DNA of 64,000 nt from a virus (taxonomy: Duplodnaviria > Caudoviricetes): positions 1 to 64,000 of IMG/VR virus record IMGVR_UViG_3300000478_000013; one strand, given 5' to 3'. The translations under genes and the position numbers were made by a program. This document shows positions 35,482-61,256 of the stretch, piece after piece; position 1 is the first letter of the stretch, and every line of letters starts with the position of its first letter. The notes below the pieces were generated by a model that saw nothing but the letters and a program-made list of their open reading frames with translations, searched no databases and was not told where the DNA came from.

Positions 35482-35724
35482 ATGGGATACCACACTCGCG
35501 AGATCAAGAAGGGTACTCTTGGTGAGACCTCTAAGATACGAGAAGAGCTTGAAGAGCTAGAGGACGCAGAGCTTCAGGGTATACGGATACTGGCTATGTG
35601 TGAGCTGGCGGACTTGTACGGTGCGCTAGAAGCAAAAGCTCTGAGTATGGGTATTTCCATGCAAGACTTAAGACAGATGTCAGAGGCCACCAAGTCTGCC
35701 TTTCTTGACGGGAGCAGACGGTGA
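35482..35724 (+). CDS. MazG-like all-alpha NTP pyrophosphohydrolase
   Basis: KIREELEELEDA...ELADLYGA (ExxE...ExxD). Confidence 0.65.
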   Translation: MGYHTREIKKGTLGETSKIREELEELEDAELQGIRILAMCELADLYGALEAKALSMGISMQDLRQMSEATKSAFLDGSRR

Positions 35725-36326
35725 CCGAAGGGTTTACCTACCCTCTGCTTCCTATTGATTGGTCCCTCATAGGTAGTGCAGTGGATTTCTACGTAAGCAG
35801 TGGGTTTTCTTACGTAGAAGTTCCTTGGGCTGTTTCAGACCGTGCTATACGCTACACGCTTCCAGAGGGTGCGGTGGACATTAAACTGAGCACGGAATGG
35901 GATGCCACTCTTGTAGGCTCAGCAGAGCAATCTCTCATAGAGCTTAAACTAAGGGGTTCTCTTCCTCCGGGAAAGTTGGTGTCTGTGTCTCCCTGCTTCA
36001 GGGGAGAGGCGTATACCTCAAAAAGAGAAGCCAGACAACTTACCTTCATGAAGGTAGAGTTATTCGTTCCTGACTCTACTGACTATCTTAGTCTGGCCTA
36101 TACGGCAGAACAGTTCTTCTTATATGAGCAGAGGCTTCCTGTAGGAAGAGTTAACACTGACCTTGGAGTAGACCTTTTCTACTCGAATCTTGAGGTGGGG
36201 TCCTATGGATGTAGGACCATAACGCTTCCCAATGGTACTCCATTTACTTGGAGTTACGGAACGGGGTTGGCGGAACCCAGATTCAGTGTGGCAAGGGAAC
36301 AATTTTTGGGGAGTTGCAAAAAATGA
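35721..36326 (+). CDS. truncated seryl-tRNA synthetase-like class II catalytic core
   Basis: LVGSAEQ (cf. IPTAEV), motif 2 SPCFRGE...FMKVEL, EVGS, motif 3 GTGLAEPR; no N-terminal coiled coil. Confidence 0.8.
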   Translation: MTEGFTYPLLPIDWSLIGSAVDFYVSSGFSYVEVPWAVSDRAIRYTLPEGAVDIKLSTEWDATLVGSAEQSLIELKLRGSLPPGKLVSVSPCFRGEAYTSKREARQLTFMKVELFVPDSTDYLSLAYTAEQFFLYEQRLPVGRVNTDLGVDLFYSNLEVGSYGCRTITLPNGTPFTWSYGTGLAEPRFSVAREQFLGSCKK

Positions 36327-38615: not shown

Positions 38616-38795
38616 ATGAAATATCTCACAAGTGAACTTGAGGACCATTTTGAAAATAGTATAGACCTCTACTGCCAGAGAATGGAAGAGGGGGACATGG
38701 ACATGGCGGCTGCGGCTGCTGCACATGCCGAGCACTACTTAGAGGCGCTCTACTTAGCACAACAGCTACAGACTCTCCTCTCCCCCGAGGTCTAG
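38616..38795 (+). CDS. small helical hypothetical protein (59 aa, below the ORF-track cutoff)
   Basis: AGGGA SD; MKYLTSELEDHFENSIDLYC...; convergent overlap with the - block end. Confidence 0.5.
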   Translation: MKYLTSELEDHFENSIDLYCQRMEEGDMDMAAAAAAHAEHYLEALYLAQQLQTLLSPEV

Positions 38796-39355
38796 TTCTC
38801 CGAGTCGTCTTTTCCGAAAATTACGTATAACTTACGGTCAGCCAGAGACATGAGAGAGTCAGCGGAGCCTTCTTCTTCCCACTTTAAAAGTAGGTCTTCT
38901 ACGGAGAAACTTTTACCAAGGCTAGTCTGGTTTCTCGTGGTCTCTAGTAGAGAAGCAAACGCGTCGAAGTCTTTCGACATAATCAAGTAAACCTTCCTAA
39001 GCCCATCATTGGACAAGGATCCCGCTACCTTATAGGCGTTGCTGCCCATTTGATTTACGTAACCTCTGGTTACTCCTCGTTTTTTCACAAACTCAGGAAA
39101 CAAACCAGACTGAATAAGAGCGGATTCACCCATAGACTTCCAAAGATTGAAGCGGCTCGGGGCCGGTGCCTCAGCCGCTTCAATCATTTGGTCGACAAGT
39201 GGGGCCAGACTTACGTTGTTACTCACAACCTGCCTAGCCAACAAATCTACAATGTAAAACTCTATCCAAGCCTCTAGGTGTAGTTTGACCCTAGCAGAAG
39301 CCTTTTTGATAGCTTCGTAGAAGAACAACTTAATGTCTGCTGCGTTAGAGTCCAC
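38792..39355 (-). CDS. bacterial-type conserved hypothetical protein
   Basis: EFYIVDLL...MGESALIQSGLFPE...RRGV..GY...MG..AY pattern recalled from uncharacterised bacterial proteins. Confidence 0.55.
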   Translation of the reverse strand: MDSNAADIKLFFYEAIKKASARVKLHLEAWIEFYIVDLLARQVVSNNVSLAPLVDQMIEAAEAPAPSRFNLWKSMGESALIQSGLFPEFVKKRGVTRGYVNQMGSNAYKVAGSLSNDGLRKVYLIMSKDFDAFASLLETTRNQTSLGKSFSVEDLLLKWEEEGSADSLMSLADRKLYVIFGKDDSEN

Positions 39356-42300
39356 TGAGGTCGATGTCTAGGTTGTCTGCGTTGAGGGCGTCTAGGGCTT
39401 TCTGTATCTTTGGAACCAAGGCAGTGTAGGCGCTGACCAGATCAGGTCTACCCTTTCTCTCCAGAACCTGGGTGAAAGCGTTGGCATTTGGTACCTCGTT
39501 GGCAGTAAGCCACTTAAGCGCCAGGTCATAGAGCTGCTTGCGCTTCTCCAGCGTGAGGGAGGCGGGACCTGTAGGGGCAGGTGCTTGTGGGGCAACAGGG
39601 GCAGGTTTCTCTTGAATCTGCTGAAGTTGTGCCTTCAGTGCGTTTATGGCGTCTGACGCTTCTCCCTTTGTTGGAGAGTCTCCAACACTCACTAGAGGAG
39701 TTTCTCCTGACGAAGAAATTTCCTCTGAGAGAGTCTTTATCTTCTCCACCTGCTTTGGAGTCGCCTCGTCATTTCTCCAGTCACCAGCAGGCCTCTTCTC
39801 TGTACTCTTGGGTGCAGGCTGGGACGTCAGAGGGTCCCTACCCTCTTGTACTAGACGAAGATAGGTTGTAAGACCTTGGACATACTTCTGGAAAACGTTC
39901 TTCGTGTCTTCATCCAGGGAGTCCCTGTTGCTCTTCCAAAAAGAAGACAAATCTTCGTACGTCTTGCTTTGTATTTGTCCTACAGCCTGATCTAGCTGCT
40001 TAGACTCACTGGGAGACAGCCCCACCGCCCTCGATATAAAGGAATATCTCTCTACCCCAACAGGAAGGGTAGCTAGTGGTTTGGGCATCCTGCCTCTTGG
40101 GCGAGACTCTGGTTCAGGCATGACTGGAGTCTGTGGTGTAGCAGCCTCCCCGGCAGGTGCGGGTGCGGGAGCCGCAGCCTGTGGAAGCTGCAGTACTCTG
40201 ACAGAAACCACGGGGGTTCCGTCTTCCGTCACAGGAAGGAACGTAGCGTCTTCCTCTGTGCCCGAGAATTCTGTTCCTTGTACAGCGACAAGTCCCTCCT
40301 CGATGCCTTGAAGTATGGCGTTCTTGGCCACGTCACGGTCGACGATCCCCTCAAGTCTTCTGATAAACTCTACTATTCCAAGATCTGCTCCCTTTTGCGC
40401 TCGCATGCCTGCACGGAGCACGCTGTGAAGCATGTCGTCAGGGACCTCCGAACGGAAAGTGGGAGAGAAGGACATCTTCTCTGGTTCTGGCACTTCGACT
40501 TCCGCTTCATCTGACTCAGAAGGAAGCACAACGTTATTAATTTCGGACGAAGGGATTCCATTTTCATTCAGGTAATCAACTATGTCCTGAGCAATGATTT
40601 CAAGCTGAGGGTTCTTTGCCTTACGCAACTTGGATAGAACTTGGTCCACGCCAAGTTCCTGCATCTTCTCCAAGATGAATACTGCGTTAGCCCTTTCCTG
40701 ATCGTCAAAATCAAACTCGTTGGCCATCTGCTCAAAGATGACCTTGTACAGGTGGGTCCTGTCTGCTGATTCTGGCTCGTCTTGCTCTTCATCTTCCCCT
40801 GAAAGGAACTCTACTGCGTCTGACGCCTCCTCTGGAAGGTCTATGCCAGTTTCCTTGATGTCTTCTATGAACTCGTCAACGTCCACGAAAGACGGACCAG
40901 GCTCCGGCATGGAATCATCCATGTCATCAAACTCTTCCTGAAGATCCTCCTCAGAAATGCCTAGGTCCTTGGCCATGGCAGCGTCGTTGGGCACGCCATC
41001 CTTGCTTACGTAAGACTCTCTTCCCTTTAGAGGAGGTAGAGTTATACCCTTAGCGTCAGGGGAACCATCCTCAGACACGAGACCCTTACTGACCAAGAAC
41101 TTGGCGACAGCAGAAGGTATGCCTTCTATATCTGTACCTTCGGAGCTGTTTACTACCTTCTCAAGTCCTTCCTTGCCTGGATTCTCCTTGATGGCCCTTA
41201 TGATGTCGGCAAATAGGTTCGAGTGGAATTCGTCAAGCTCCTTCTCTTCCACCATGTCCTGGAACACTGTCTTCTTGGCCTTATCCTTTTCTGCCTTAGA
41301 AAGGTCTTCTTCCGCAGAAGCGTACGGATTCTTGAAAGCCACCCCCGTAAGAGAACTAAGATCTGGTATTCCTGGAACCCCAGACTCATACTTACTCTTG
41401 TTCTTGCCAATGTGACGAAGTATCTTGACCACAATTTCATTGAGGTCAGGACGAGACTTGAGAAGCGCACCTATCAACTCTGCGGCGGTCTTTCCGCTTT
41501 CGGTCATCCGCAGCTGAACAGAACTCAGTATGTTGTTGGCCGTCTCTGCCTCGGCCTCTGACAGCCCCTGTTCCTCTATGAAGTACTCGAATCCCTTGCT
41601 CCATCTGGATATAGGGGTGCGTTCCACATTTACGCTGTCTACTTCGTCCTGTTCTGAAGGAGAACCTGCGTCTGGAGCGCCGGGACCAAACACGGACGAC
41701 AGTCCGTAGTCGTTCCTCATCTTTGAAAGAGGCCGGGTCTTGTTTAGACGAGTAATGAAGTTCCTCATCTTCTGGAAGAGGTATAGGTAGCTGTACGGAG
41801 CAGATTTGCTCATATCCATAGACTCGAATTCAGACTCCATGTCGTCCAAACTCATGTCGTACATGGCAAATTCGCTCATCCTATGAAGCATGTCCAGTAC
41901 ACGCTCTCGCGTATCCTTGGCAGATTCTACAGCTTCGTCGGGGCCCGCTTCATCCTTTAGTTCCTTTTGTATGGAATCGATAAGAGGATTCAGCTGAGCA
42001 TCTAGAGGGAAGTGTCCCTTTACGTCCTCATAGGAAGGAAGCTTGTGTTCCCCAGTGTACAACGATTGGAAGTTCCACCCTTCATCACTCTTGATCTCGC
42101 TGTGCTGGTTGATAAACAGACCCAGTCGTGTGGCAAGGGCCAGAACTCCCTTTCCTTCGATAGACTTGGACCGTCCTAGGCCTTTAACTATCTCCGAAAG
42201 TGGCTTGCCGTTGGATACCATTCTTATGATATCGTTAAGCTTTTCCGCCTCGTCCTTTGACAAACCTGGCTGTGCGTTGTGAAGCGCCTCTGCTGACTTA

Positions 42301-45300
42301 GCCCTGTCAGACAAGTCCACAGGGGCAAACCCACTACCTCCAGGAAGAGATTCCAACGGAACAACACGCAATGGTTTCTGAAGGTCGGACAGATCCCAGT
42401 TGCCCTTGTCCTTTCTAAGGTCCTCCGCGTTCTCCAGCAGGAACTTAACGACCGACTTTATGACGGCAGACTGATTGGATAGTGTGTTGGAGGCAGGTAA
42501 GCTAGGAGAGAACTTCCTTACGTCTCCACCGTTCTTAAAGTGGTTACGAAGGGCCAACATCAGTATCTTAAAGTTTCGTATCCTAGCATCGTACGAAGCT
42601 TTACTCTCGTCAGGGTCGGGGGGCAGAGCTACAGCCTGTAGTTCTTCCAATAGGGACCTTCTGACCTCTGGTGCGGTCTTGCTGAGAGGAGCAAAGGTGG
42701 CTCCGTCTGTCTCCGCCTTCTCTTTGGCATATTGCTTTATGGCGTCCACTACAGCAGCAGCTGCACTATCGGACTCCATCATGTCCTTATAGTACCTATC
42801 TAGCGCAGCAACAGCTGCGTCAGGGAGATTTTTCTTGTGTGGAGCTATAGACCTTAAGAAGTCTTCGGGAGTAATAGTACCGTCAGTAAACTGGACTACT
42901 AGCCTCTCCGGACTAACAGAGGTCTCCTTCTTAGGTCTCGCCTTAGGTGCTTCCTTCTTACCTTCTTGCTCCCTCGACGGATTTTTGATGCTCTTTACTG
43001 GCTTTATCTCTTCTTGGAGAGGACGATAGGTGTCCTCTTCTCCTTCTGGGAGCACGGGAGGAGCATACCCAGGAGTCTTGGACGGCTTGCTAATCTCGAA
43101 CATGTTGTCCAGATTGTAGGTTCCATCTCCTCTCTGGAATTCGTCACGGTCCGATAGGAAATCATTAACCTTGGTAAGGGTTTCTAACTCCTTCGAAACA
43201 GGGTGTTCTGATATTTTGCTCTTTACCTTTTCCTGTATGTGCTCTATCAGGTTTTTAAGGTATTCCTTCTTTTCCTCTGCTTCAGCTTCCTGCGTCGCTA
43301 GGGTGTCCTTCACCTTTGTGAAGTTTGACTCTAGCTCCTTTATCTTTTGGTTTACCTGACGAAGCTCTGTTCTAGTTTTCTTTCCGGAAAATGATACGGC
43401 TTCTCGTCTTAGCTCCTTCAGCGTTTCCTTTACTTCTTCGATGTCCTCTCGGATAAGTTCACGCGCTTGGATCATATCCTCCTGGTCTGCATCCGCCAGG
43501 TAGGCGTACTCCTTGTACACGGATAGAACAAAAGGGTCAAGCGGTGCTCTCGTGGCACCAGACTCGTCTGTCTCTCCCTTCTCCAAGGAAGAGATACCAG
43601 AGGGACCAAGCAGAGCGGATAGAGATTCTCCCCCTCCCTTGGTAGCAGCAAGTATTTCTGTGAGTGCCTTTAGTTTCTCCTTGGAAAGGGTGATCCTACT
43701 CTGGTACTCCTTTCCTGCCTCTTCCACGGCCCTTTCTCTTATTTTGTCCCGCTCCTTCTTAGCAGACACTATGTCTGCATCTATACCAGTTAGGGCAGAT
43801 CTTGTTTTCTCTACCGCGTCTTGTACTGATAGAAGATCTTCTCTTCTTTTCCTGGTCTTCTCCTCCATGAGAGAGGACCCCTTCTCTATAAGAGCGGATA
43901 TCGCACGTTCCCTCTTATCCAAGAGAGCACTGAAGTCCTTTCCACTCACGTGGTTGTCTAGAGCTTCTTGCATAAGACTCTTGAGCAGGTCCTTGTCCAC
44001 GCCGGGTATAGAAGTGGACATCTGGTCGAAGAGGGGCTTTTTGTTGAGAAGCTCTTGTTCTTCCTTCTTTTTATCCAGCTCCTTCTTTTTCTCCTCTACC
44101 TTAGTCTCATCTACCTTGTACTCATCCCTTTCTATCTGAAGCATTTCATCAGCTAGTGTTTGAGACTCCTGCTTTTGAAGGAAGAACTGGGTAAAGCTGG
44201 GGTACTTGCTCTTGAAAAGAGCATCGTTCTTCTCCATGAGAGAGAAAAGTGCGTTGGAAAACTTGGATACGGCACGGTTGTAAGTCTTAGACACCAGGTC
44301 TATGATCTTCTCGTCGACCTCGTCATCACCTACGTCTGCACCAAATTCCTCTACAGCTATCTCCTGTAACCTCTCTCCAACACTATACGCTGGCTTTGTG
44401 CCCGCAGGGATGGAGTCCTTTAAGTTATCTACCTCGTCATCGTCTAGATGGTCTCTCCTAAGAAGACCTGGGACTCCCCATACCCAACGAAGAATGTTTT
44501 CCTCGTCAGGTTTCATAGATATCCGCATGAGAATAGAGTTTAGGAGGTTTTGTACCTTGTCAGTCTCTGGGTCCTCGGACCTAAGGAAAAGTAGGACCTT
44601 GTCCCTCTCGGTGTCTCCCTTGCTTACAAGCACCTTCTTCAGCGGAAGAAGAGAACGCTTCAGAGCGACGTCATCCTTTGCCTTCTCCCTAAGGATAGAC
44701 ATCAGGGACTCTACTGCCCCTTTCTTCCTTCTCTTCATGTCACTTAGTGACTCTGATCCTGAGAAGGGCTCCATGGAGCCTATCTCCTGTAATGAAAGGA
44801 CTGCGTTGTTAGCTTGCCCTATGCCAAGAATTCCTGATAAAAGTGCCCTGTCTTTCTCGTCCAGCCTAGGGTCATCCTGAGTCAGGAGTATGTCTGCAAT
44901 GACCTCCAGTGTGTGAGATACATTCTCTTCTGACAAGGCAGCCATCTCTTGAGAAAGGGGGTCTGCGTCCTGGTCGGCTACCATGTCTACCACCGATACG
45001 TCTTCTTCGTCGTCTCCTGTGGTTATGGTAGGTGTAACAAATCTCTTGGCCTTTATTTTCTGAGTGTAAGATATTACTACCTTATCTCCGCCATTTTTAG
45101 GAGAAAATTCCAAAACACCAGACTCAGGGAAAGCAAGATATTCGTCTTTTCCTATCGAAACTCCCTGTGTGTCTGAGTTTCTGGTAAGAACCCTTAGCTT
45201 CTTGCCACGGTAGTATTCATCAAGCCAAATGATGCCTGAAGAAGGAGCAAAGAAGAATATGTCCTTGTTTCCCTTCAGCTTGTTTTTGCTCTCTGTTGTG

Positions 45301-47126
45301 TGTGACTGTCCCTCAGCCATTTCCAGCCTGACGTCACGCTCCGGGTCGATAACAGATATTTCACTAGTTCTTCCTGGTTGTGGCCCTACCACTATTTTTA
45401 CGCGAGAAGACTTCTTTCTTCCTTCTTCCTCGGTTGGAAGAAGGTTTGCATTGGCTGGGGTAAATTCCTTGTTGTCAGGACCTACTACCTTTAGGTTATC
45501 TGTCCTAAATCCAGTTACTCCTATCTCCACTCTTCCACCGTTCTCTGGAATAGTGAGAGTCTTGGTCCCTGCACGTGATACGGTGTCCTTTACCTCGCTC
45601 ACCGCTTGATTGTACACCTGACGAAGAGCGGACCTTACGTTAGCAAGAAGGGGAGATCCGTGAAGACGGAAATCCACAGGATTGGGTATCTTTTCCTTGT
45701 TCCTCTTCTCTCTATCAAAGTTGAGTACCGCTTTTCTGAACTCGTTGAGTGCAACAGAATGCAGCTCTGCCATACCTATGCTGGCTTTGTCGAAGACCTC
45801 TGCTATGGGGCGGAAAGACTTGAGTGACGTACCAGGAAAATAGGTCTGTGGGTCAAGTATCGCACCTATGAGCATGGCGGTGTAGTACTTGGAAAAGTCT
45901 ACCATGTCCTCTTCCAGCGAGGATGCCTCCTGCCGTACGGACTTCATGTATTTGAGTGTGTCCAGGTCAAGAACTCTAGACCCTGACTCACCGAACTCAG
46001 GAAAGTCTTCATCACCCTCCTGCGTCTGTAGGTCGTAAATTCTCTCAGAAATGAGAGAAGCCAGTGAATACATTCCAGATAGCTTTGGAGAAATTTCCGA
46101 GCTTACGAAATCGCGCAGAGTATCCCTGTTGTCCTGAGACGGGTTACTCTCCACCTTGTGCAGTAGATGCTCAAAGTCAATTAACTCTCCAGTTATGTCC
46201 GGAATTGAGGCTAACGCTTCTTTCCTCTTTTCATCTGAGCTAATGCCGGAGGCCTTCTCGTGCATAGAGTCTATCTCAGACTCTATCAAAGGAATGAGTG
46301 TGTCTATGACAAATTCTGGGTTGGGGTGAGACAGTATTTGTGTCCAAAGGTCTGATGCCTTGTCCTTGAACGATTCTATCCTGTCGAACTCCTCCTGGCT
46401 GTCCAGCTGGACTCTCTTCTTGTTCTCCTTGCCCGTAAGGAAGAATTCTATGCGAAACTTCTTTCCTTTTGCGCCTTCTGGCCAGTGGAGCATGCCCGTC
46501 TGGTAGTTGTACACTACCTCCCCAGAAGAAGGGGTCTTGCTGGTCCCTGGCCGTACCTTGTACTCAGGGCCGCTATCATCGTCACCACCTACTTCAATAA
46601 CACGAATTCCCTTCCGTAGGTCCACTCCCTTTTCGAGCTTGGTCTTCAGGCTGTTGTTGACTGTGGTCGTCTCGGCAAGAGGCTCAAAGTGGAACCAGTC
46701 AGACTCCAGGGACCATTGACCCTCGTTCTTCTTCGTTTGTGATTTAGTGGAGGTCTCCTCTTCCTCTTCGTCGTCATCATCAAGAAGGTCGTCGTCTGAC
46801 TCTTCCTCCGTTTCCTCCTCGGCATCCTCTGCCACCTCTCGCCAGTCGTAAGACACAACAACCTTGCGTCCAGAGTCCTTATCGGAGAAAAACAGAACCC
46901 CGTCCTCTGGAAGAAGGAAGAACGTTTCCTTTTTTAAGGAAGATGAATCTGTAGGAGTGAACTCTTTGTTCGTCTTGAGTTCCACAACAGAAACAGAAGA
47001 AGGGTTTATGTTTCCATTCTTCAGCTGCACTTCTCCATCGTCAGGGATAGTGAGTGTTTCTTTTTCGGCTTGTGGTTTAGACGGATCAGCGAGAACAAGT
47101 CTTGGAAACGTAATAATTTGGGCCAT
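39345..47126 (-). CDS. giant (2593 aa) acidic multidomain protein with sigma70-like regions, beta-domain repeats and a DUF3072-like motif
   Basis: Single uninterrupted ORF. Sigma-like segments LDTLKYMKSV (1.2), FRKAVLNFDREK (2.2-2.3), TGDDEEDVSVVDMVAD (3.2), LDEKDRALL..ILGI...LSLQEIG and MKPDEENILRWVWG...LQEIA (4). Confidence 0.65.
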   Translation of the reverse strand: MAQIITFPRLVLADPSKPQAEKETLTIPDDGEVQLKNGNINPSSVSVVELKTNKEFTPTDSSSLKKETFFLLPEDGVLFFSDKDSGRKVVVSYDWREVAEDAEEETEEESDDDLLDDDDEEEEETSTKSQTKKNEGQWSLESDWFHFEPLAETTTVNNSLKTKLEKGVDLRKGIRVIEVGGDDDSGPEYKVRPGTSKTPSSGEVVYNYQTGMLHWPEGAKGKKFRIEFFLTGKENKKRVQLDSQEEFDRIESFKDKASDLWTQILSHPNPEFVIDTLIPLIESEIDSMHEKASGISSDEKRKEALASIPDITGELIDFEHLLHKVESNPSQDNRDTLRDFVSSEISPKLSGMYSLASLISERIYDLQTQEGDEDFPEFGESGSRVLDLDTLKYMKSVRQEASSLEEDMVDFSKYYTAMLIGAILDPQTYFPGTSLKSFRPIAEVFDKASIGMAELHSVALNEFRKAVLNFDREKRNKEKIPNPVDFRLHGSPLLANVRSALRQVYNQAVSEVKDTVSRAGTKTLTIPENGGRVEIGVTGFRTDNLKVVGPDNKEFTPANANLLPTEEEGRKKSSRVKIVVGPQPGRTSEISVIDPERDVRLEMAEGQSHTTESKNKLKGNKDIFFFAPSSGIIWLDEYYRGKKLRVLTRNSDTQGVSIGKDEYLAFPESGVLEFSPKNGGDKVVISYTQKIKAKRFVTPTITTGDDEEDVSVVDMVADQDADPLSQEMAALSEENVSHTLEVIADILLTQDDPRLDEKDRALLSGILGIGQANNAVLSLQEIGSMEPFSGSESLSDMKRRKKGAVESLMSILREKAKDDVALKRSLLPLKKVLVSKGDTERDKVLLFLRSEDPETDKVQNLLNSILMRISMKPDEENILRWVWGVPGLLRRDHLDDDEVDNLKDSIPAGTKPAYSVGERLQEIAVEEFGADVGDDEVDEKIIDLVSKTYNRAVSKFSNALFSLMEKNDALFKSKYPSFTQFFLQKQESQTLADEMLQIERDEYKVDETKVEEKKKELDKKKEEQELLNKKPLFDQMSTSIPGVDKDLLKSLMQEALDNHVSGKDFSALLDKRERAISALIEKGSSLMEEKTRKRREDLLSVQDAVEKTRSALTGIDADIVSAKKERDKIRERAVEEAGKEYQSRITLSKEKLKALTEILAATKGGGESLSALLGPSGISSLEKGETDESGATRAPLDPFVLSVYKEYAYLADADQEDMIQARELIREDIEEVKETLKELRREAVSFSGKKTRTELRQVNQKIKELESNFTKVKDTLATQEAEAEEKKEYLKNLIEHIQEKVKSKISEHPVSKELETLTKVNDFLSDRDEFQRGDGTYNLDNMFEISKPSKTPGYAPPVLPEGEEDTYRPLQEEIKPVKSIKNPSREQEGKKEAPKARPKKETSVSPERLVVQFTDGTITPEDFLRSIAPHKKNLPDAAVAALDRYYKDMMESDSAAAAVVDAIKQYAKEKAETDGATFAPLSKTAPEVRRSLLEELQAVALPPDPDESKASYDARIRNFKILMLALRNHFKNGGDVRKFSPSLPASNTLSNQSAVIKSVVKFLLENAEDLRKDKGNWDLSDLQKPLRVVPLESLPGGSGFAPVDLSDRAKSAEALHNAQPGLSKDEAEKLNDIIRMVSNGKPLSEIVKGLGRSKSIEGKGVLALATRLGLFINQHSEIKSDEGWNFQSLYTGEHKLPSYEDVKGHFPLDAQLNPLIDSIQKELKDEAGPDEAVESAKDTRERVLDMLHRMSEFAMYDMSLDDMESEFESMDMSKSAPYSYLYLFQKMRNFITRLNKTRPLSKMRNDYGLSSVFGPGAPDAGSPSEQDEVDSVNVERTPISRWSKGFEYFIEEQGLSEAEAETANNILSSVQLRMTESGKTAAELIGALLKSRPDLNEIVVKILRHIGKNKSKYESGVPGIPDLSSLTGVAFKNPYASAEEDLSKAEKDKAKKTVFQDMVEEKELDEFHSNLFADIIRAIKENPGKEGLEKVVNSSEGTDIEGIPSAVAKFLVSKGLVSEDGSPDAKGITLPPLKGRESYVSKDGVPNDAAMAKDLGISEEDLQEEFDDMDDSMPEPGPSFVDVDEFIEDIKETGIDLPEEASDAVEFLSGEDEEQDEPESADRTHLYKVIFEQMANEFDFDDQERANAVFILEKMQELGVDQVLSKLRKAKNPQLEIIAQDIVDYLNENGIPSSEINNVVLPSESDEAEVEVPEPEKMSFSPTFRSEVPDDMLHSVLRAGMRAQKGADLGIVEFIRRLEGIVDRDVAKNAILQGIEEGLVAVQGTEFSGTEEDATFLPVTEDGTPVVSVRVLQLPQAAAPAPAPAGEAATPQTPVMPEPESRPRGRMPKPLATLPVGVERYSFISRAVGLSPSESKQLDQAVGQIQSKTYEDLSSFWKSNRDSLDEDTKNVFQKYVQGLTTYLRLVQEGRDPLTSQPAPKSTEKRPAGDWRNDEATPKQVEKIKTLSEEISSSGETPLVSVGDSPTKGEASDAINALKAQLQQIQEKPAPVAPQAPAPTGPASLTLEKRKQLYDLALKWLTANEVPNANAFTQVLERKGRPDLVSAYTALVPKIQKALDALNADNLDIDLSGL

Positions 47127-47142: not shown

Positions 47143-47775
47143 TTAAAATCCAGGGATAGGGGTGCCTGTACCTGGGGCACCAGAAGCTCCTGCTCCCGGA
47201 ATCTCTGGTACCTCTTCTGAAATACCCTCTTCTTCAGACTTCTTTTTCTTGTCTTTGCCCCCTACTTCCTTAGAAGGAAGCTCGTGTTCCACTGGCTTTG
47301 CCTTTTCTTCTTTGTGGACTTTTCCAGATAGTGTGCTTAGCGTTTTGGTCAACTGCTTCAGGTCTGCTATCTTGGTTGCTTCTGCTTTTATCAGGTCGGC
47401 AAGCTCGCCTAACGCAGACGCCTTGATGCCGGGTAGATCGTCTTCATCTGTCTGAAGTATCTTCGACAACTCTTGACCGGACTCCTCAAGCTTGGCAGCC
47501 AGCTTGTCCGTCAGACTGGACATTTCCTCCACGGCTTCCTTGAAGGGATGCTTTTTTGGCAGTGTTCGCATAAGCGCCAAAAAGCTATCCGCATTCTCTT
47601 CCAGCATGGATAGAGATGTATCCTGTACCTTTATTTTCTTCAGTAGGGGTGAATCTATCCCGTGAGGCTTAGAATTTGATATGGCCTCTATCACCCTTGC
47701 AATTCTTTTTTGAATGGCAGGAGGGGAGTTAACGTATACAAACCGAAGTTTAGCTTGTGCGTTCTTAGTCATCAT
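47143..47775 (-). CDS. helical hypothetical protein, late block
   Basis: ATGA overlap; coiled-coil character. Confidence 0.6.
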   Translation of the reverse strand: MMTKNAQAKLRFVYVNSPPAIQKRIARVIEAISNSKPHGIDSPLLKKIKVQDTSLSMLEENADSFLALMRTLPKKHPFKEAVEEMSSLTDKLAAKLEESGQELSKILQTDEDDLPGIKASALGELADLIKAEATKIADLKQLTKTLSTLSGKVHKEEKAKPVEHELPSKEVGGKDKKKKSEEEGISEEVPEIPGAGASGAPGTGTPIPGF

Positions 47776-50645
47776 CGACCCTTAGGTAAGTCCCTTACTT
47801 GTGTCACAAGCTGGTCGTTCATAGGAGGCGGACCTCCTACTTGGTCAGGGTACGGACCTGGGGGATACCCATTTCCTCGCTCCTTACCGTTTTCTGGTCT
47901 GTTGGGAAGTGGGTTCACAAGGCTGTCCGCCGTGATATCCTCTGCCACCTCTCCGTGTTCCGCGGCAGACTCTACGTCAGACTCTTCCATTTCTCTCAGA
48001 AGAGAGTCATGAAGTGGTGACACCACTACTTCGAACCCGTTGATCGATGAAGGAACTTCCTTCTTCATGGCCCTTGGCATGGTAGTGTGCAGATAAAGAA
48101 TAGGTTTACCATGAGGGGATAAATCGCGCCTCACATCCTTCACCCGTGGGTCTCCCTTAAACATATTCCTTAGCTTAATAACGGCCTCGTCTACCTCTTC
48201 TTCTGCTGCCCCTGATGGTGCAGAGGGGTCCCTCGGCAAGTTCATGAACTTTAGCCCAGGACGCGCTTTTTGACGGATGTCGTCTACTATCTCCTTTTCT
48301 ACAAAGTCCTCAGTAGACTCCTCTTCCTTGGGGGCATCTGGGTTCAACATAGGCCTGTCGTTGACCACAAAAACACTACCACTGTCCTGGGTGGCAGGAC
48401 CAGATACAGGCGCCCCGCCCGGAGGAGGGCTACTCACGGGGGCGACTGGCGGGAGGAAAGGGAGGTGCCCACCTCCTGGGGGATTGACAGCAGGAGGAAC
48501 CTTCAGTGTGACGTCTCCTGGAAAACGACCAAACGGTGGAGGTTCAAACGCTTCTGGAGGAGGCGGAGCAGATACGGACTTAGGTACCTGAACGATGTAG
48601 TAAACGTCATCCTCTCCGATGACATGTGCGAAGGGGGGAGGTCCTTCAGGCACAGGTGGCATCCCCATGAATTCTGGGGGTGGCGGCATGTGATCGTGTG
48701 GAACAGGTGGCATCGAAGGACCCATTTCTGGAGGACATGCAGACCGTAACCATGCTTTCTTTATCTCTATTTCTTTTCCGTTGTCTATCCTACGAACCTT
48801 ATACGCAGGACTCTTGTTGGCTTGTCTGACAACTTCCACAAGCTCCACCATAGTGGTCTCGCCTGTATCTGGATCCTTCTCCATCCATTGCTGCCCTACT
48901 TCAGGAACCACACCAATAGCCCCATTTGCGTATCTGATGATGTCCTTCTTGGACGCTATAAAAATGTGAGCAGAAACTCTAAGCCTATCAGACAAGGCGG
49001 CTACTCTTGACCTAAGTGGGTCATCGGTGGCTAGGTTACTGACCACATCCGCCAGTTTTTGAGACCCCTCTAGTGACATTACGCTGGGAACTCTCTCTAC
49101 CTTAGATGGAGATGCAGGTATATAGGTAAGAGCCACACGAAAAGCAGAGTACTTGCTGATGGGGAAGTCTGTGTATCGGTATATACCGAAGTCTTTTTCA
49201 ATGAACTGGTCAGCATCCTCCATAATTTGGAATACTTCTACCTTGTACCCAAACTCGCCCTTGACTTCCTCAAGGAAAAAAGACACGTCCTCTTCTCTAT
49301 CAAATGGAATGTCGTAGGTAAGGTGCTTTGTCTTGACGGCGTTCTTCTTGCGAAGAAAGTCCCTAAACTCAGGATCCCGAAGAGCGTTGCCGGTAAAAGT
49401 TACACGCATTACCGGACCTGCGGTTTTTACTGTTGATGCATTCTTCGGCATTCTTTCACCTTCGCCAATAGTTTCTAACAACGCCTTGTCGGCCGCTATT
49501 ACATAATTACCACTAATTAATATGGGTTCGTTTGCCACTAGATATATTTTGTATTGGAATTTTCCTCTTCTCTTAGAGGAAGGGTACTGGTCCAACAAAG
49601 TTTCAATCGTGTCGTCGACCTTAACTCCATAGTAAAGGTCTCCTTTCCTACGATTGGATTCCACGAGTAACATACGAACAAACGGGTCGGACTCAGCAAG
49701 CTCCTCAATCTGAGCCAGGTGTTCCTTGCTAGACAGCTTCTGTATGTCTTTTATCTTTGCCGCCTCTTTCAACGTGACGTAACTAGCACACTTGACATAG
49801 CTGCCCTGACTCCACCGGAACGAAGGGCAGTTTTTGTCTCCTACGCGGCAGAAGGCAAACCTATCTGTTACCTTAGTAACCTTTTCTGGCAGACGAAGGT
49901 CTGGGCAATCATCCTTTTCTACCTTCCAATTACCCTGAGCCCCCATGTAAGCGGGGATTAGCCCTATCTCTTCTACGTAGTAGTTCTTTATCTTGTCTGC
50001 TGCATCCGCTATTCTTTGAGCAGATAGAGGCATGTTTCTTTTGCGCAGAAGAGATTCTACTTTGATTAGGACATGGTGTGGGGACAACATTTCTGCTACC
50101 TTGAGGGAGGATGTGCCTTCGTTTAGAGCAGAAGTTTCTTCTTCCAAGTACTCAGACCACTTCGATAAGACGGACTCTCTGACAGAAGGCCAGAAGCTGT
50201 CTATGTAGTTCCAATAAGGTCTCACCTTCTCCAAGAAACCTGCCTCTACAGGTATCTTGTTTGACTTCTCTCTCATTGTACGTACGGTGTCAGACTCAAG
50301 CTTTGCATACTTTGTGTACGCCTTTGTCACCACCTGAAGAACTTCATCTAGTATTTCATTTTTCTCTTTGTTATCAAGTACTTCATCAAACACCACGGCG
50401 GATAATCCGACACGAATTTTGTCTATCGCTTCTAAGTGTGTGTCGATCTTGGGGAGTAGTGACATCTCTTTAAGATCAATGAAGAACTTTTTGGCCTCCT
50501 CTACATCATCCTGAAGTGCAACCACGGAAGGAATTAGATGAACCAGGTGCTGAGCCACACCCTCTTTTATGAGGGCGTCCCAGTCCGCCTCCGATATCTC
50601 CAGAAAGGCTATAGCCAGGTCTTTTCGCTTGTCCTTGTCAGTCAT
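47772..50645 (-). CDS. 957-aa mosaic protein with Pro-rich linker, probable virion/internal protein
   Basis: Long ORF; several apparent modules separated by K/R-x-A sites. Confidence 0.6.
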   Translation of the reverse strand: MTDKDKRKDLAIAFLEISEADWDALIKEGVAQHLVHLIPSVVALQDDVEEAKKFFIDLKEMSLLPKIDTHLEAIDKIRVGLSAVVFDEVLDNKEKNEILDEVLQVVTKAYTKYAKLESDTVRTMREKSNKIPVEAGFLEKVRPYWNYIDSFWPSVRESVLSKWSEYLEEETSALNEGTSSLKVAEMLSPHHVLIKVESLLRKRNMPLSAQRIADAADKIKNYYVEEIGLIPAYMGAQGNWKVEKDDCPDLRLPEKVTKVTDRFAFCRVGDKNCPSFRWSQGSYVKCASYVTLKEAAKIKDIQKLSSKEHLAQIEELAESDPFVRMLLVESNRRKGDLYYGVKVDDTIETLLDQYPSSKRRGKFQYKIYLVANEPILISGNYVIAADKALLETIGEGERMPKNASTVKTAGPVMRVTFTGNALRDPEFRDFLRKKNAVKTKHLTYDIPFDREEDVSFFLEEVKGEFGYKVEVFQIMEDADQFIEKDFGIYRYTDFPISKYSAFRVALTYIPASPSKVERVPSVMSLEGSQKLADVVSNLATDDPLRSRVAALSDRLRVSAHIFIASKKDIIRYANGAIGVVPEVGQQWMEKDPDTGETTMVELVEVVRQANKSPAYKVRRIDNGKEIEIKKAWLRSACPPEMGPSMPPVPHDHMPPPPEFMGMPPVPEGPPPFAHVIGEDDVYYIVQVPKSVSAPPPPEAFEPPPFGRFPGDVTLKVPPAVNPPGGGHLPFLPPVAPVSSPPPGGAPVSGPATQDSGSVFVVNDRPMLNPDAPKEEESTEDFVEKEIVDDIRQKARPGLKFMNLPRDPSAPSGAAEEEVDEAVIKLRNMFKGDPRVKDVRRDLSPHGKPILYLHTTMPRAMKKEVPSSINGFEVVVSPLHDSLLREMEESDVESAAEHGEVAEDITADSLVNPLPNRPENGKERGNGYPPGPYPDQVGGPPPMNDQLVTQVRDLPKGR

Positions 50646-55134: not shown

Positions 55135-55977
55135 CTACCTAGTCTTTTTGGGCCTTATAGCCTGCCACGTGCCTAGATCGTACCCGTCTTTGGTTAGCTG
55201 GTCAAAAAGCTTCTTAAGAAGCCTGGACGCTGGTTTAGCCATAGAGTAACCGTCGTAACACAGCCCATTGTGCAGCTCACTTATGGACCTAGTCAGAGTG
55301 TTCTTTGCGTGCATAGAGCAGGATCCAGATCCTGCAGGAGATACGTACATGGGTACGTTTCTCCTCGCACATTCCTTAGCCCAGAACTTGTGTGCAAGAG
55401 CCCACTGGTCCCCTTCGTTCTTAGGGGACACAATCATTCTACGACGCTTAGGATCTTTAAGGACCGCATTCCAACACTTCTCTGCCTCCGGAGATGCCCC
55501 TTGAGGTGGGTGCCCCACCTTAGGCGACCCCTTACCTGCTCTGGCCATTCTGAGTCTTGTGGCCTTGGGTATGGCCCTGGCCTCGGCTACGACCTCTCGA
55601 ATCTCTTCTTCCGTGAAGGATGTGTTGGCATCCGCCTGTAGATTGAGAGGCATGAGAGGTCTGTTGAGGAAGCCGTTCGCCTTCAGCCAAGAAGTAGAAT
55701 CCTCTAGGTCAGTCGGCTTCCACACTAGAGCTACTGCTTCTTGTAGGTGATCTAGCCTTACCTTGTTCTGAACATAGACTTTGGCCATGTTCCTCATTTG
55801 CTCTTCGTTCTTTATCCCCAGGAGCCTTAGTCTTCCCAGGAACTGGGAATAGTACTGCTCAGGAAGCACCTTAAACATCTTGAGCCAAGCAGATTCCTCC
55901 TCCACGATCCTCCATAGCAGTTCCTTAGGCGCGTAAAGAACTGCCTTCTTTTGTTGGTCTAGGGGGAGAACGTCCAT
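55135..55977 (-). CDS. hypothetical late protein with internal ChaB-like module
   Basis: TGATG overlap; PPQGASPEAEKCWNAVL...DQWALA. Confidence 0.6.
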   Translation of the reverse strand: MDVLPLDQQKKAVLYAPKELLWRIVEEESAWLKMFKVLPEQYYSQFLGRLRLLGIKNEEQMRNMAKVYVQNKVRLDHLQEAVALVWKPTDLEDSTSWLKANGFLNRPLMPLNLQADANTSFTEEEIREVVAEARAIPKATRLRMARAGKGSPKVGHPPQGASPEAEKCWNAVLKDPKRRRMIVSPKNEGDQWALAHKFWAKECARRNVPMYVSPAGSGSCSMHAKNTLTRSISELHNGLCYDGYSMAKPASRLLKKLFDQLTKDGYDLGTWQAIRPKKTR

Positions 55978-56669
55978 CAGAAAAACTCTCTTATGATGTC
56001 AATTTCAGAACGGGCTTCGCTGATCATACGAAGGGCCATGTCCATTTCTTTGTTGTGATTCTTCTTGTGTGCTACAACAGCTTTCACTGAGGCAAGCACC
56101 ATAGCCTTAGCAAGAGGCAGAGAATTAGGTACTCCCTGCGCCTCCAGCCTCTTTGCAGTCTTCGCTATAACAGAGGCTATCCTCTTTTTCTCGTCAGCGA
56201 CAGAGGCAGACCTTTGGTTACCACCGCCCCCAGCGGACTGCTGGGCTACCTGCTGAGCACCCTGTCCTATCATTTGTGCCACGTTTCCTGCGATGTCGGC
56301 CCACATGTCTGGGGGTAAATTCTTAGCAAATTGCATTATCTTGGGGCCAAGTTTGGCTATCATGGGTCCAAGAGCGCGCACGAGGGCGAGAAGCGCAGGA
56401 TGGGCTGTCTTTTCCACGTCTGCTTTTACCATTCGACGCATCTTTGCGGCTACTTCTAACATTCTCTTTTCTTGCGATGTGTTCATGGCCTTCCTTACCC
56501 ACTTTCCGTTGTCTTTCTTCCAATTTTTCTTTACGGCTCCCCAGGAATATTGATACTTGTTTTCTACGTCACTCCCCGCGTTCTCGTAAGCATTCATCCA
56601 AACTTTTTGCGCGTCCTCTGGGAGTGACTTCACCTGTGTAGGCAGGTCTTTTATACTGGAGTAGGGCAT
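55977..56669 (-). CDS. ChaB-domain protein with extended C-terminus
   Basis: MPYSSIKDLP..VK.LPEDAQKVWMNAYENA...SWGAVKKNWKKD.GKWVRK. Confidence 0.85.
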   Translation of the reverse strand: MPYSSIKDLPTQVKSLPEDAQKVWMNAYENAGSDVENKYQYSWGAVKKNWKKDNGKWVRKAMNTSQEKRMLEVAAKMRRMVKADVEKTAHPALLALVRALGPMIAKLGPKIMQFAKNLPPDMWADIAGNVAQMIGQGAQQVAQQSAGGGGNQRSASVADEKKRIASVIAKTAKRLEAQGVPNSLPLAKAMVLASVKAVVAHKKNHNKEMDMALRMISEARSEIDIIREFF

Positions 56670-58075
56670 CAAATCCTCTCATGAAGTGGAAGGCTTCGGG
56701 TAAACTTCGGCTCCTTCACTACAGTTTGTGTTTGAGGTGCCTTAACATACGTGACTATTCTTTCGTCTGTACCTTCAAATCCTGGTCCCAAGGCTTCTTT
56801 GTCCTGGTCTTCTTCCTGGTCAAAATCTAGAAACCTAGATAACTTGTCCGCTACATTGGTTTGTCCTCTTTTACGCGCCTCTTTGGCCACTGCTGCCAAT
56901 TTGAGCTTTGCCTTCTTGGGCATGTACGTCACTAGGGCGCGGTAAAATACTTGAAACCCGTCTGGACCCATTTCTCGTACCTCGGTGACCTCTATCTCCT
57001 GCTCCGCCTTGTCCGTAACAATCTTTATTTGGTGCCCCTCCATGTCATCTACAGCCAAGGCCTGGGAAGAATCCAATAGACGAATTCTCATGTCACCGTC
57101 CTTCATGGACAGTATTTCTACTGGTATGACTACATCTCCTGCTTGAAGGTAATTTTCGCTGTCAGAAGAGGCCTCTACCTTGTTACTGAGACTTACGTTC
57201 CATGACTTTTCTTTCCCGACATTAATGTCCACCGAATCTACCCTCCAGGTCAGGGATTTAACAGCAGCATAGTTCTTTGGACTCTTGCTGTATTCTAAGG
57301 TTACATGGGGGTTGTAGTTCTTTCCTGTGAAGGTCTTATCAATGAGACCGGGCTTCACGAACTCTATGGCGTCTAGACACATGTCGTGGAAATCAGTGAG
57401 GGCAGTAGACTTAACCTTTGCAACATGAGGGTAAGTTCCATCTTTCTGAGGAGTAGGGAAAGTTGTGGTCCCATCGAGCTGCACTTCAAAGGTTCCTATC
57501 TCTTTTGCTATATCCTCAATAAGGGGTATTATTTCCTTGGCGTCTTCCTCAGAAATAGAAGGGAAGTACATCACTGTAATGTGCGGGCCGTACTCCAAGT
57601 CTGAGGCAAAGGGCATATGATCTGCTATGTTCTTTGGGACGCTTATGCCTATGATTCCACTGTCCTTTTTGGACGCAGATATGAGTGGCCTCTGGTCATC
57701 TGAGGAAAAAGAGAAACTGATGACAAATGGCATGTGGGAGTATCTTTCAAAAGTGGACCCAGAAGGAAGGTCCGTAACTCCAGTAAGGAGTCCCATAAAC
57801 TCATCCGTTCCTGCCCTGAACCTTACCGCCTTGCCTACTCTTGACTTGATGTACCTATAGATGTGCTCTATGTCTGATTGAGTGTCATCCTGATCTGTGG
57901 ACCAAAGGAACTTTATCCTAAGCGTTCCTTCGCTCTCCTTGGACGAAAGAATCGTAGCTTCAAACGACTGGGAGTCCAACGTGATGGACACGTCCTTGTT
58001 TAGATACTTAGTCAGTACCCTAGAAGCAGACTCTGGGTCTGTTATCTTGTCAGCCGTAAGAAAACGTAGTTTCAT
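56669..58075 (-). CDS. multidomain protein with central 2H phosphoesterase (2'-5' RNA ligase/Acb1-like) domain
   Basis: GPHITVMY and YNPHVTLEY (two HxT motifs); ATG 58075 overlaps the upstream stop. Confidence 0.8.
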   Translation of the reverse strand: MKLRFLTADKITDPESASRVLTKYLNKDVSITLDSQSFEATILSSKESEGTLRIKFLWSTDQDDTQSDIEHIYRYIKSRVGKAVRFRAGTDEFMGLLTGVTDLPSGSTFERYSHMPFVISFSFSSDDQRPLISASKKDSGIIGISVPKNIADHMPFASDLEYGPHITVMYFPSISEEDAKEIIPLIEDIAKEIGTFEVQLDGTTTFPTPQKDGTYPHVAKVKSTALTDFHDMCLDAIEFVKPGLIDKTFTGKNYNPHVTLEYSKSPKNYAAVKSLTWRVDSVDINVGKEKSWNVSLSNKVEASSDSENYLQAGDVVIPVEILSMKDGDMRIRLLDSSQALAVDDMEGHQIKIVTDKAEQEIEVTEVREMGPDGFQVFYRALVTYMPKKAKLKLAAVAKEARKRGQTNVADKLSRFLDFDQEEDQDKEALGPGFEGTDERIVTYVKAPQTQTVVKEPKFTRSLPLHERI

Positions 58076-58737
58076 TTGTTGAGTACCGAGTCTATGGCCC
58101 TGTCTAAACCTTCTACCCATCTGCGGCACATTCCTGCATTGGGAGAGTAGAAGGATACTCGATCAAAGGTGTACGCACGTACACCATCTATCAGAAATTC
58201 TTCCATTAGAATTCTGTGGTCTGCCGTTACTATTGGCTCCCTTACTACACCGTGATTTTCTAGCTTGGCCCAGGTCAAAGGCTTAGGTAGACTGTAATTT
58301 TGCCCAGTCTTTCTTAGAAGACTCTTTTCTCTTGGTGAAATTTCAAATCTGTAGCATTGTTTGCTTCCAAGGTACTCTACCAGCCTAACTATAGCATCCC
58401 GGTCCAAACCGTAATCAGGTTTGGTTTTGAGCAGGGTACAGAGACCACCAGAACATATCAGGTGCTTCTTCTGCGTTGCCCTTCCTCCACTGGAGGGGGA
58501 CACAACGCTCGGAACAGGAGCGGCCTTTTCTTTAAAGTCGTAGCCCTCAGACGAAAGAGCCTTCTGTATACGCATGAGAAGACGTAAGGCCCTGTCATTC
58601 TTTGTATAGGAAGAAGATTCCACAAAGTAAACTAGGAGGTCATCAAACGCGTTCTCTACCTCCTTGTTATACTTTTTCTTCTTCTTGCTCTTCTTGCCAG
58701 AAGCAAGAACTAGCAGTCTGCTAACGATATCACTCAT
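58072..58737 (-). CDS. hypothetical late protein
   Basis: AGGAG SD; leader SRLLVLAS. Confidence 0.6.
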   Translation of the reverse strand: MSDIVSRLLVLASGKKSKKKKKYNKEVENAFDDLLVYFVESSSYTKNDRALRLLMRIQKALSSEGYDFKEKAAPVPSVVSPSSGGRATQKKHLICSGGLCTLLKTKPDYGLDRDAIVRLVEYLGSKQCYRFEISPREKSLLRKTGQNYSLPKPLTWAKLENHGVVREPIVTADHRILMEEFLIDGVRAYTFDRVSFYSPNAGMCRRWVEGLDRAIDSVLNK

Positions 58738-59430: not shown

Positions 59431-59583
59431 ATGTCTAGGATATACCACTTGTCCCTGTACTCCGTAATTTGCGTATCTGCAATAACTACAGCGTGGGGAG
59501 TGGTGGCCAATGATGTTAAGAGCTTTTTGATTGGGCCTGTCGTAGCACTCTCGGTTTGGATGGTTATGGACGAGGAAGAGTAA
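59431..59583 (+). CDS. 50-aa two-TM membrane microprotein (not in the ORF track)
   Basis: MSRIYHLSLYSVICVSAITTAWGVVANDVKSFLIGPVVALSVWMVMDEEE*; fills the intergenic gap. Confidence 0.5.
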   Translation: MSRIYHLSLYSVICVSAITTAWGVVANDVKSFLIGPVVALSVWMVMDEEE

Positions 59584-61216: not shown

Positions 61217-61256
61217 GGATGGATGATAACACCCCTCCGTAGCGATAGCCACTTAA

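Follow-up and report, generated by a model that had tools for sequence, protein, structure and literature searches.

This report concerns a 64,000-nucleotide stretch of viral DNA (Duplodnaviria; Caudoviricetes), positions 1 to 64,000 of IMG/VR virus record IMGVR_UViG_3300000478_000013, here called the window, and one gene on its minus strand (39345-47126) that encodes a 2593-residue protein, here called the giant. We propose that residues ~385-985 of the giant form a sigma-derived module that would dock host RNA polymerase and that sits in a late head-associated or cargo protein; we put the probability of this reading at roughly 55%. Its parts differ in strength. Sigma ancestry of the module is likely, binding of RNA polymerase by the module is a tentative proposal, and delivery of the giant by the virion is doubtful.

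The Giant and Its Sigma-Like Module

The open reading frame is intact, with 2593 codons and no internal stop (P0001, 2593 amino acids, aa). Its source is a 93.5-kb virus record (G000) with a CheckV completeness of 24%. In the coordinates of the window, its parts are as follows.

39345..47126, minus strand: the giant open reading frame, 2593 aa (translation; family of about 25)
45975..47126, minus strand: N-terminal region, aa 1-384, with beta-rich segments, an acidic low-complexity stretch and helices (translation, family alignment)
45582..45974, minus strand: sigma-2-like helical domain, aa 385-515 (helices aa ~388-511 in the model), with the 2.2-like helix VALNEFRKAVLNFD
45042..45581, minus strand: beta-rich immunoglobulin-like (Ig-like) domain, aa 516-695, in the position of sigma domain 3 (aa ~515-693 in the AlphaFold2, AF2, model)
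44952..45041, minus strand: acidic disordered linker, aa 696-725, in the position of sigma region 3.2 (predicted local distance difference test, pLDDT, <50; disordered at aa ~692-725 in the model)
44652..44951, minus strand: first sigma-4-like domain, aa 726-825, with 4.1-like LDEKDRALLSGILG and 4.2-like LSLQEIG ... KRRKKGAVESL
44172..44579, minus strand: second sigma-4-like domain, aa 850-985, with 4.1-like DEENILRWVWGVPG and a helix-turn-helix (HTH) RLQEIA ... VSKTYNRAVSKF
39345..44171, minus strand: C-terminal ~1600 aa, with coiled-coil, helical and Pro/Ala-rich linker regions (translation, profile scans)

The module would thus run from a sigma-2-like domain, through an Ig-like domain in the sigma-3 place and an acidic linker in the 3.2 place, to two tandem sigma-4-like HTH domains, in the second of which a ~35-aa insert separates the 4.1-like helix from the HTH. 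A sequence-only reading of this DNA had first proposed a sigma skeleton here from a chain of short strings, all of which are present where it put them: DLDTLKYMKS at aa 387, ELHSVALNEF at 454, VRSALRQ at 497-503, ITTGDDEEDV at 701, LDEKDRALLS at 755, LSLQEIG at 777, MKRRKKGAVESL at 797-808, MKPDEENILRW at 871, RLQEIAVEEF at 919 and VSKTYNRAVSKF at 945-956. These motifs span nucleotides 44259-45968, within the claimed interval of 44250-45975.

The giant belongs to a family of about 25 full-length members of 2071-2814 aa. A word-indexed search returned ten full-length relatives with 31-75% identity end to end, and the whole-length alignment of the giant with these ten has a mean column identity of 46%. 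An exhaustive HMMER search of 1.84 billion representative proteins with a profile of aa 375-975 gave 16 matches, all within the giant family: 14 full-length (2071-2814 aa) and two shorter (443 and 1490 aa). Twelve of these were additions to the family, namely ten full-length giants and the two shorter proteins. A tblastn search of 50,697 phage records with the giant found no match. The contigs of two relatives, 392 and 424 kb long, have a CheckV completeness of 100%, and one of them has terminal repeats, which places the giant in a clade of ~400-kb jumbo phages.

Profile Comparison With Sigma Factors

We used hhalign to compare a module alignment of 23 sequences with an alignment of 87 sigma factors (six from E. 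coli, two ordinary sigma factors of related phages and 79 from diverse bacteria); the P-values are pairwise and calibrated by shuffles alone. The first sigma-4 unit scored 34.3 (P 2.3e-4; column shuffles 13.0+-2.1, maximum 18.1) and the second 38.3 (P 7.5e-5; column shuffles 12.4+-2.7, maximum 22.1). Each lies about 10 standard deviations above its shuffles, and none of 50 shuffles equalled the observed score. The HH probabilities were 44% and 62% for the two region-4 units and 1% for region 2, and the beta domain, as a control, gave P 0.44.

The aligned registers follow the sigma elements. In region 2.2, DL..VAL..FR.AVL.FD of the giant stands against DLIQEGNIGLMKAVDKFE, with the hydrophobic and A-V..F-D framework retained. 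In region 4.1, L(D/N)xKDRAiL.G.lG stands against L..RE..VL.LRfG. In region 4.2, rLS(I/L)QEIA stands against tLEEVG, and a basic helix stands against the recognition helix of sigma. When the sigma profile was run over the whole 2550-column family profile, its top match was aa 706-785 (P 0.0024), where the acidic linker and the first sigma-4 unit lie; because the linker is of low-complexity composition, this match is weak evidence for the linker itself. Likewise, the claim that this stretch corresponds to region 3.2 fits by linker position, while the likeness of its acidic, low-complexity sequence carries little weight. Comparisons with a low-diversity RpoE/FecI profile and with the canonical sigma factors of the two complete relatives (G001 and G002) were weak (P 0.02-0.8), and a search for RpoE homologues returned close orthologues only and did not help the comparison.

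In the main rival to the sigma-derived module, the giant is a head protein with a structural or DNA-binding role and reuses these folds. The helical parts would then be generic DNA-binding or structural modules of three or four helices, similar to sigma through kinship in the HTH superfamily or by convergence, and the giant would organize DNA or build the head, as a protein of the inner-body, decoration or fibre type, with no contact to polymerase. We consider this unlikely. With profiles of equal depth, sigma outscores LuxR-type HTH proteins for both sigma-4 units: four E. coli sigma factors gave P 0.0043 and 5.5e-4 for the two units, and four E. coli LuxR-type regulators gave P 0.12 and 0.36. 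In this comparison the accepted distant relationship between sigma and LuxR gave P 5.7e-4. Further, the two units resemble each other weakly (P about 0.01), and each is nearer to the sigma profile (P about 1e-4) than to the other unit.

Structure Models and Conservation

AF2 models cover aa 370-970 and aa 826-1000 of the giant. The first, built from an 11-sequence family alignment (mean pLDDT 72), shows in order a helical domain, a beta-rich domain, a disordered acidic stretch and more helices. In an exhaustive VIA structure search with this model, about 27 of the best 50 rows were sigma factors or sigma-derived scaffolds, and these fell into two sets, domain 2 (model residues 30-141) and region 4 (model residues 353-455). 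No non-sigma helical protein was among the best 50 rows; the remaining rows were Ig-like phage domains on the beta insert. The second model (pLDDT 78, predicted template modelling score 0.74) retrieved sigma region 4 at ranks 1-5 and in about 30 of its best 50 rows. The sigma region 4 fold, 4.1 helices plus the 4.2 HTH, is therefore the top structure match for both units. Here too the generic-module explanation fares poorly: for each of three separate domains, nearly all helical matches are sigma, and the domains follow the sigma order.

These results bear on several claims of the sequence-only reading. It had called region 4 duplicated, and both units are above chance by hhalign, in the registers it proposed, with sigma region 4 as their top structure matches. 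Its beta insert in place of sigma-3 (aa ~516-695) is real in the AF2 model, and so is the acidic disordered linker (aa ~696-725). Its assignment of the helix at aa 388-424 to region 1.2 is probably wrong, since in the model this helix superposes on region 2.1 or the preceding helix (hhalign was weak here). It had also named the lack of any sigma-2 or sigma-4 fold, by profile or by structure, as what would speak against it; with these comparisons run, sigma region 4 folds were found and the reading was not refuted.

Conservation within the family is highest in the sigma-2-like region, with a mean column conservation of 0.66 vs 0.54 overall and 15 invariant columns per 100. Among all 15-residue windows of the giant, the first rank goes to the 4.1-like helix of the second unit, PDEENILRWVWGVPG, and the fourth to the 2.2-like helix VALNEFRKAVLNFDR. 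In true sigma factors, the 4.1 element grips the beta flap and the 2.2 element the beta' clamp helices. The high conservation of the 4.1-like and 2.2-like helices points to core-binding elements; it is suggestive, not proof. That helices equivalent to those that bind core are among the most conserved stretches of the giant again argues against generic modules.

Evidence Against a Sigma-Derived Module

Several results weigh against a sigma-derived, polymerase-docking module. Pfam searches up to E 10 found no sigma family in the whole giant or in the three fragments that the sequence-only reading had singled out (aa 370-520, 690-820 and 860-970), where they gave sub-threshold noise only. Six-frame searches of G000, G001 and G002 with Sigma70_r4 (PF04545) gave no match at the giant genes. 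A sequence-profile search of the PDB with the full family alignment returned nothing, and Foldseek gave no match at E <= 0.001 with both models against the PDB, nor in a search of BFVD. The HMMER search described above found no canonical sigma factor, no unfused form of the module and no other protein outside the giant family. The Ig-like insert belongs to a type usually exposed on virion surfaces, and flanks of 384 and 1600 residues are an awkward size for a working sigma factor.

The sigma-2 unit scored 20.7 (P 0.044), which is marginal next to a shuffle maximum of 20.3 and a score of 18.1 for the reversed sequence. Of the claim for regions 2.2-2.4, the register proposed for 2.2 was recovered by hhalign, and the profile signal behind it is marginal. 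E. coli sigma70 touches the beta' clamp helices with Q406, E407 and N409 of region 2.2, whose counterparts in the giant, by the hhalign register, are S457, V458 and L460. The melting aromatics of region 2.3 (Y425, Y430, W433 and W434) are absent, with FSTYATWWIRQ of sigma70 facing FRLHGSPLLA-N. The sequence-only reading had already noted that the YATWW-type W/Y residues are missing, and the alignment bears this out. Extracytoplasmic function (ECF) sigma factors are also without the W dyad. Altered 2.2 residues and absent melting aromatics together mean that the module is not a canonical sigma factor. If it binds core at all, it would do so with altered chemistry, and judging from its residues it probably does not carry out the usual -10 melting.

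Other searches were equally silent. PHROGs gave no sigma match to the giant or to its three fragments. A six-frame search with Sigma70_r2 (PF04542) had no match in G000 and matched G001 and G002 only at their ordinary sigma genes. A shape search of the ESM Atlas with the second sigma-4 unit gave template modelling (TM) scores all <0.4; the lowest root mean square deviation, 3.4 A across 80 residues, belonged to one sigma70 cluster, a result that cannot serve as evidence. With no curated sigma profile matched, the giant lies outside the sigma70 family by curated definitions. Of the proposal that a sigma-derived giant lies beside head genes, the order of the skeleton and the gene context hold; canonical sigma residues and a standard profile match are lacking.

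Flanking Regions of the Giant

The N-terminal region (aa 1-384) has no Pfam, PHROG or PDB match. The C-terminal ~1600 aa contain no further significant sigma-like unit, either by a scan with the sigma profile or by comparison of the sigma-4 units with the rest of the protein, where the best candidate for another sigma-4 copy had P 0.044 and was not significant. An ESM Atlas feature search with the C-terminal 1617 aa returned nothing usable. Near the C-terminus, aa 2455-2501 (39624-39764, minus strand) hold a motif ATPKQVEKIK...KGEASDAINALK without a Pfam match, which may resemble the DNA-binding hairpins of the HeH, Rho-N or DUF3072 type. No RNA polymerase family was matched in the giant by Pfam, PHROG or PDB profiles, which highly diverged two-barrel polymerases can escape.

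Gene Neighborhood and Tail Alternatives

The giant is the penultimate gene of a long minus-strand series. The series starts with the large terminase, followed by a 161-aa protein, the portal, the prohead protease, a homing endonuclease and two unknowns (599 and 353 aa). A virion structural protein, the major capsid protein, an HNH endonuclease and twelve proteins with no family or odd ones follow. The series ends with the giant, a 187-aa protein and a strand switch. The genes are tightly spaced or overlapping. By gene order and spacing, the giant closes a terminase-portal-protease-capsid operon. Its immediate neighbors are the following.

47143..47775, minus strand: upstream gene, 210 aa, helical and K/E-rich; 16 nucleotides before the giant start, always adjacent in relatives
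38792..39355, minus strand: downstream gene, 187 aa; its start overlaps the giant stop by 11 nucleotides, and the strand switch follows directly after this gene

The 187-aa gene is kept downstream of the giant in four relatives. Its protein has no family match, and its profile found nothing in the PDB; given the sigma-like module next to it, it could act as a partner or chaperone. A promoter and terminator scan around the giant gene stayed at background level.

The great length of the giant, its largely helical character and its coiled coils could also suit a tail tape measure with a sigma-like passenger, ejected through the tail ahead of the DNA. There is a precedent in Thermus phage P23-45, where an RNA polymerase is fused to the tape measure and delivered by the virion (bioRxiv 10.1101/2022.12.01.518664). 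We regard this explanation as very improbable. The only Baseplate_J gene of G001 is about 70 kb from the giant, and a 1480-aa M23-peptidase protein just upstream of that gene is a better candidate. The neighbors of the giant show no tube, sheath or chaperone signal, and Ig-like domains would be out of place within a tail tube. The giant as a tape measure was rejected on gene context, since it closes the head operon and is not in a tail module. The 1480-aa protein of G001 (L107:5494-9936, minus strand) carries its M23-type metallo-endopeptidase domain at aa 1129-1237, upstream of the baseplate genes, and is likely the tape measure or a tail lysin of this phage group.

By the large terminase (TerL), the nearest cultured phages are PaBG-like jumbo myoviruses, at 30% identity. 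The capsid protein alone is shared with the post-capsid block of PaBG (35%), and the sheath, tube and hub genes of PaBG have no counterpart beside the giant. Sheath Pfam models had no match in the complete relatives.

Transcription Genes of the Phage Group

Each complete relative has one ordinary Sigma70_r2 gene above threshold, L016 (G001:245925-249122, 450 aa) and L017 (G002:308485-311679, 417 aa). Neither has a special likeness to the module of the giant, and that of G001 sits between the baseplate module and the head operon. One model each for the beta (PF00562) and beta' (PF00623) subunits of RNA polymerase gave no match in the two complete relatives. A model of the single-subunit T7-type polymerase (PF00940) gave none there either, but its controls were silent, so that this result is uninformative. 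With no polymerase match and one sigma gene, the group fits the class of polymerase-less, sigma-using jumbo phages, which are known to depend on sigma factors together with HTH proteins that bind the flap (PMC7824862).

These facts bear on a further alternative, in which the giant is not delivered by the virion and acts as a late regulator, either as an atypical late sigma factor or as a decoy that titrates core or anti-sigma partners. A sigma-like module is present, the gene is grouped in an operon with late genes, and the phage group is taken to depend on host RNA polymerase. Against this, a regulator of 2593 aa is without precedent, the relatives already have an ordinary sigma gene, and the promoter-melting residues are absent. 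The position in the head block and the tight translational coupling to the neighboring genes point instead to a virion or assembly role. We give this alternative low odds, above those of the tape measure.

Other Genes Near the Giant

Two genes upstream of the giant, a 957-aa protein (47772-50645, minus strand) has a four-cysteine cluster CPE...C...CPS...C and a long proline-rich stretch; it is 50-63% identical in relatives and has no family match. Between the capsid gene and the giant lies a 231-aa protein (55977-56672, minus strand) with a ChaB domain (PF06150, E 6e-8). A 486-aa head-block protein (56669-58129, minus strand) has a weak RNA-ligase / 2H-phosphoesterase (LigT-like) match, and its homologue in the 392-kb relative matches PF13563 (2_5_RNA_ligase2). 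Three paralogous HNH/homing endonuclease genes (phrog_559 / phrog_3339) are found at 59564-61252 (minus strand), at 62979-63998 (plus strand, running past the window end) and at L103:4000-5994 (minus strand). They are interspersed among the genes of the head operon, past the protease gene and flanking the capsid gene. Beyond the strand switch, a 201-aa protein (35721-36326, plus strand) matches a PHROG annotated as histidyl-tRNA synthetase (E 5e-37) and is like a truncated class II synthetase. In relatives, eIF-1a-like and intein-bearing DnaB genes lie nearby.

Comparison With Known Systems

The closest likeness is to the sigma70 family, especially two-domain ECF and group 3 members. Sigma-2-like and sigma-4-like folds occur in the same order with an acidic flexible linker between them, and the registers of region 2.2 (DL..AV..FD) and of regions 4.1/4.2 (L..RE..iL ... 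tLxEIa ... recognition helix) agree. The giant differs in that it fails all Pfam sigma models and does not keep the 2.2 polar residues or the 2.3 aromatics. Its sigma-3 is an Ig-like beta domain, and its region 4 is doubled, with a 35-aa insert in the second copy. Its module sits in a 2593-aa head-operon protein and has no free-standing form among 1.84 billion proteins.

Phage-encoded, highly diverged sigma-type HTH domains are also found in T4 gp55/gp33 and in the 'minimal sigma' of group 2 jumbo phages (PMC7824862). In phages that lack a polymerase of their own, these minimal sigma factors and the HTH proteins that bind the flap serve to redirect the host enzyme (PMC7824862). Unlike the giant, they are small stand-alone late factors, and no sequence relation between them and the giant was found. 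The sigma-like specificity subunits of AR9 (7s01) and phiKZ (gp68) differ in that their partners are polymerases encoded by the phage, and the models searched detected no such polymerase in this phage group.

Giant virion proteins are known to bring transcription into the cell in N4, in phiKZ/AR9 (PMC7598289) and in P23-45 (bioRxiv 10.1101/2022.12.01.518664), which allows early genes to be read at once. These virion polymerases are catalytic, whereas the giant, a putative virion protein, has a sigma-like module that would need the host enzyme. Polyvalent proteins and T4 Alt are likewise large and multidomain, with genes beside those for head morphogenesis; they are packaged and injected to affect host systems, and in the case of Alt the target is host RNA polymerase (PMC5512222). 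The size of the giant and its position in the head operon fit this group, but Pfam and PHROGs recognized no described effector or MuF-type domain in it. The word 'sigma' is absent from the survey of polyvalent proteins (PMC5512222). Full-text literature searches and surveys of jumbo-phage transcription and of polyvalent proteins turned up no giant head-operon protein with a sigma-type module built in, and the searches turned up no such module delivered by a virion.

Proposed Role and Significance

On the reading of a sigma-derived module in a late head-associated or cargo protein, the giant would be made late together with the head proteins, and would most likely be head-associated or cargo, carried in or on the capsid. 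In host core polymerase, the beta' clamp helices would receive the 2.2-like helix and the beta flap would receive a 4.1-like helix. Early in infection, RNA polymerase could then be captured at the entering DNA or withheld from host promoters. The fullest form of this proposal, in which a polymerase-less jumbo phage injects a sigma-derived module with its DNA and the module docks core and tethers the enzyme to the incoming genome, is speculative, and we hold it to be less probable than virion delivery as such.

Known phages take over transcription by a virion polymerase, by small sigma or anti-sigma proteins after entry, or by injected enzymes that modify RNA polymerase. If the fullest form of the proposal is true, immediate-early transcription would have a third route, a virion-delivered sigma factor, in addition to virion polymerases and the sigma70 promoters of the host. 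Should the module bind core, this would show how a 400-kb phage without a polymerase gains hold of the host enzyme in the opening seconds of infection, and the sigma70 family would gain a very diverged branch that standard annotation has overlooked.

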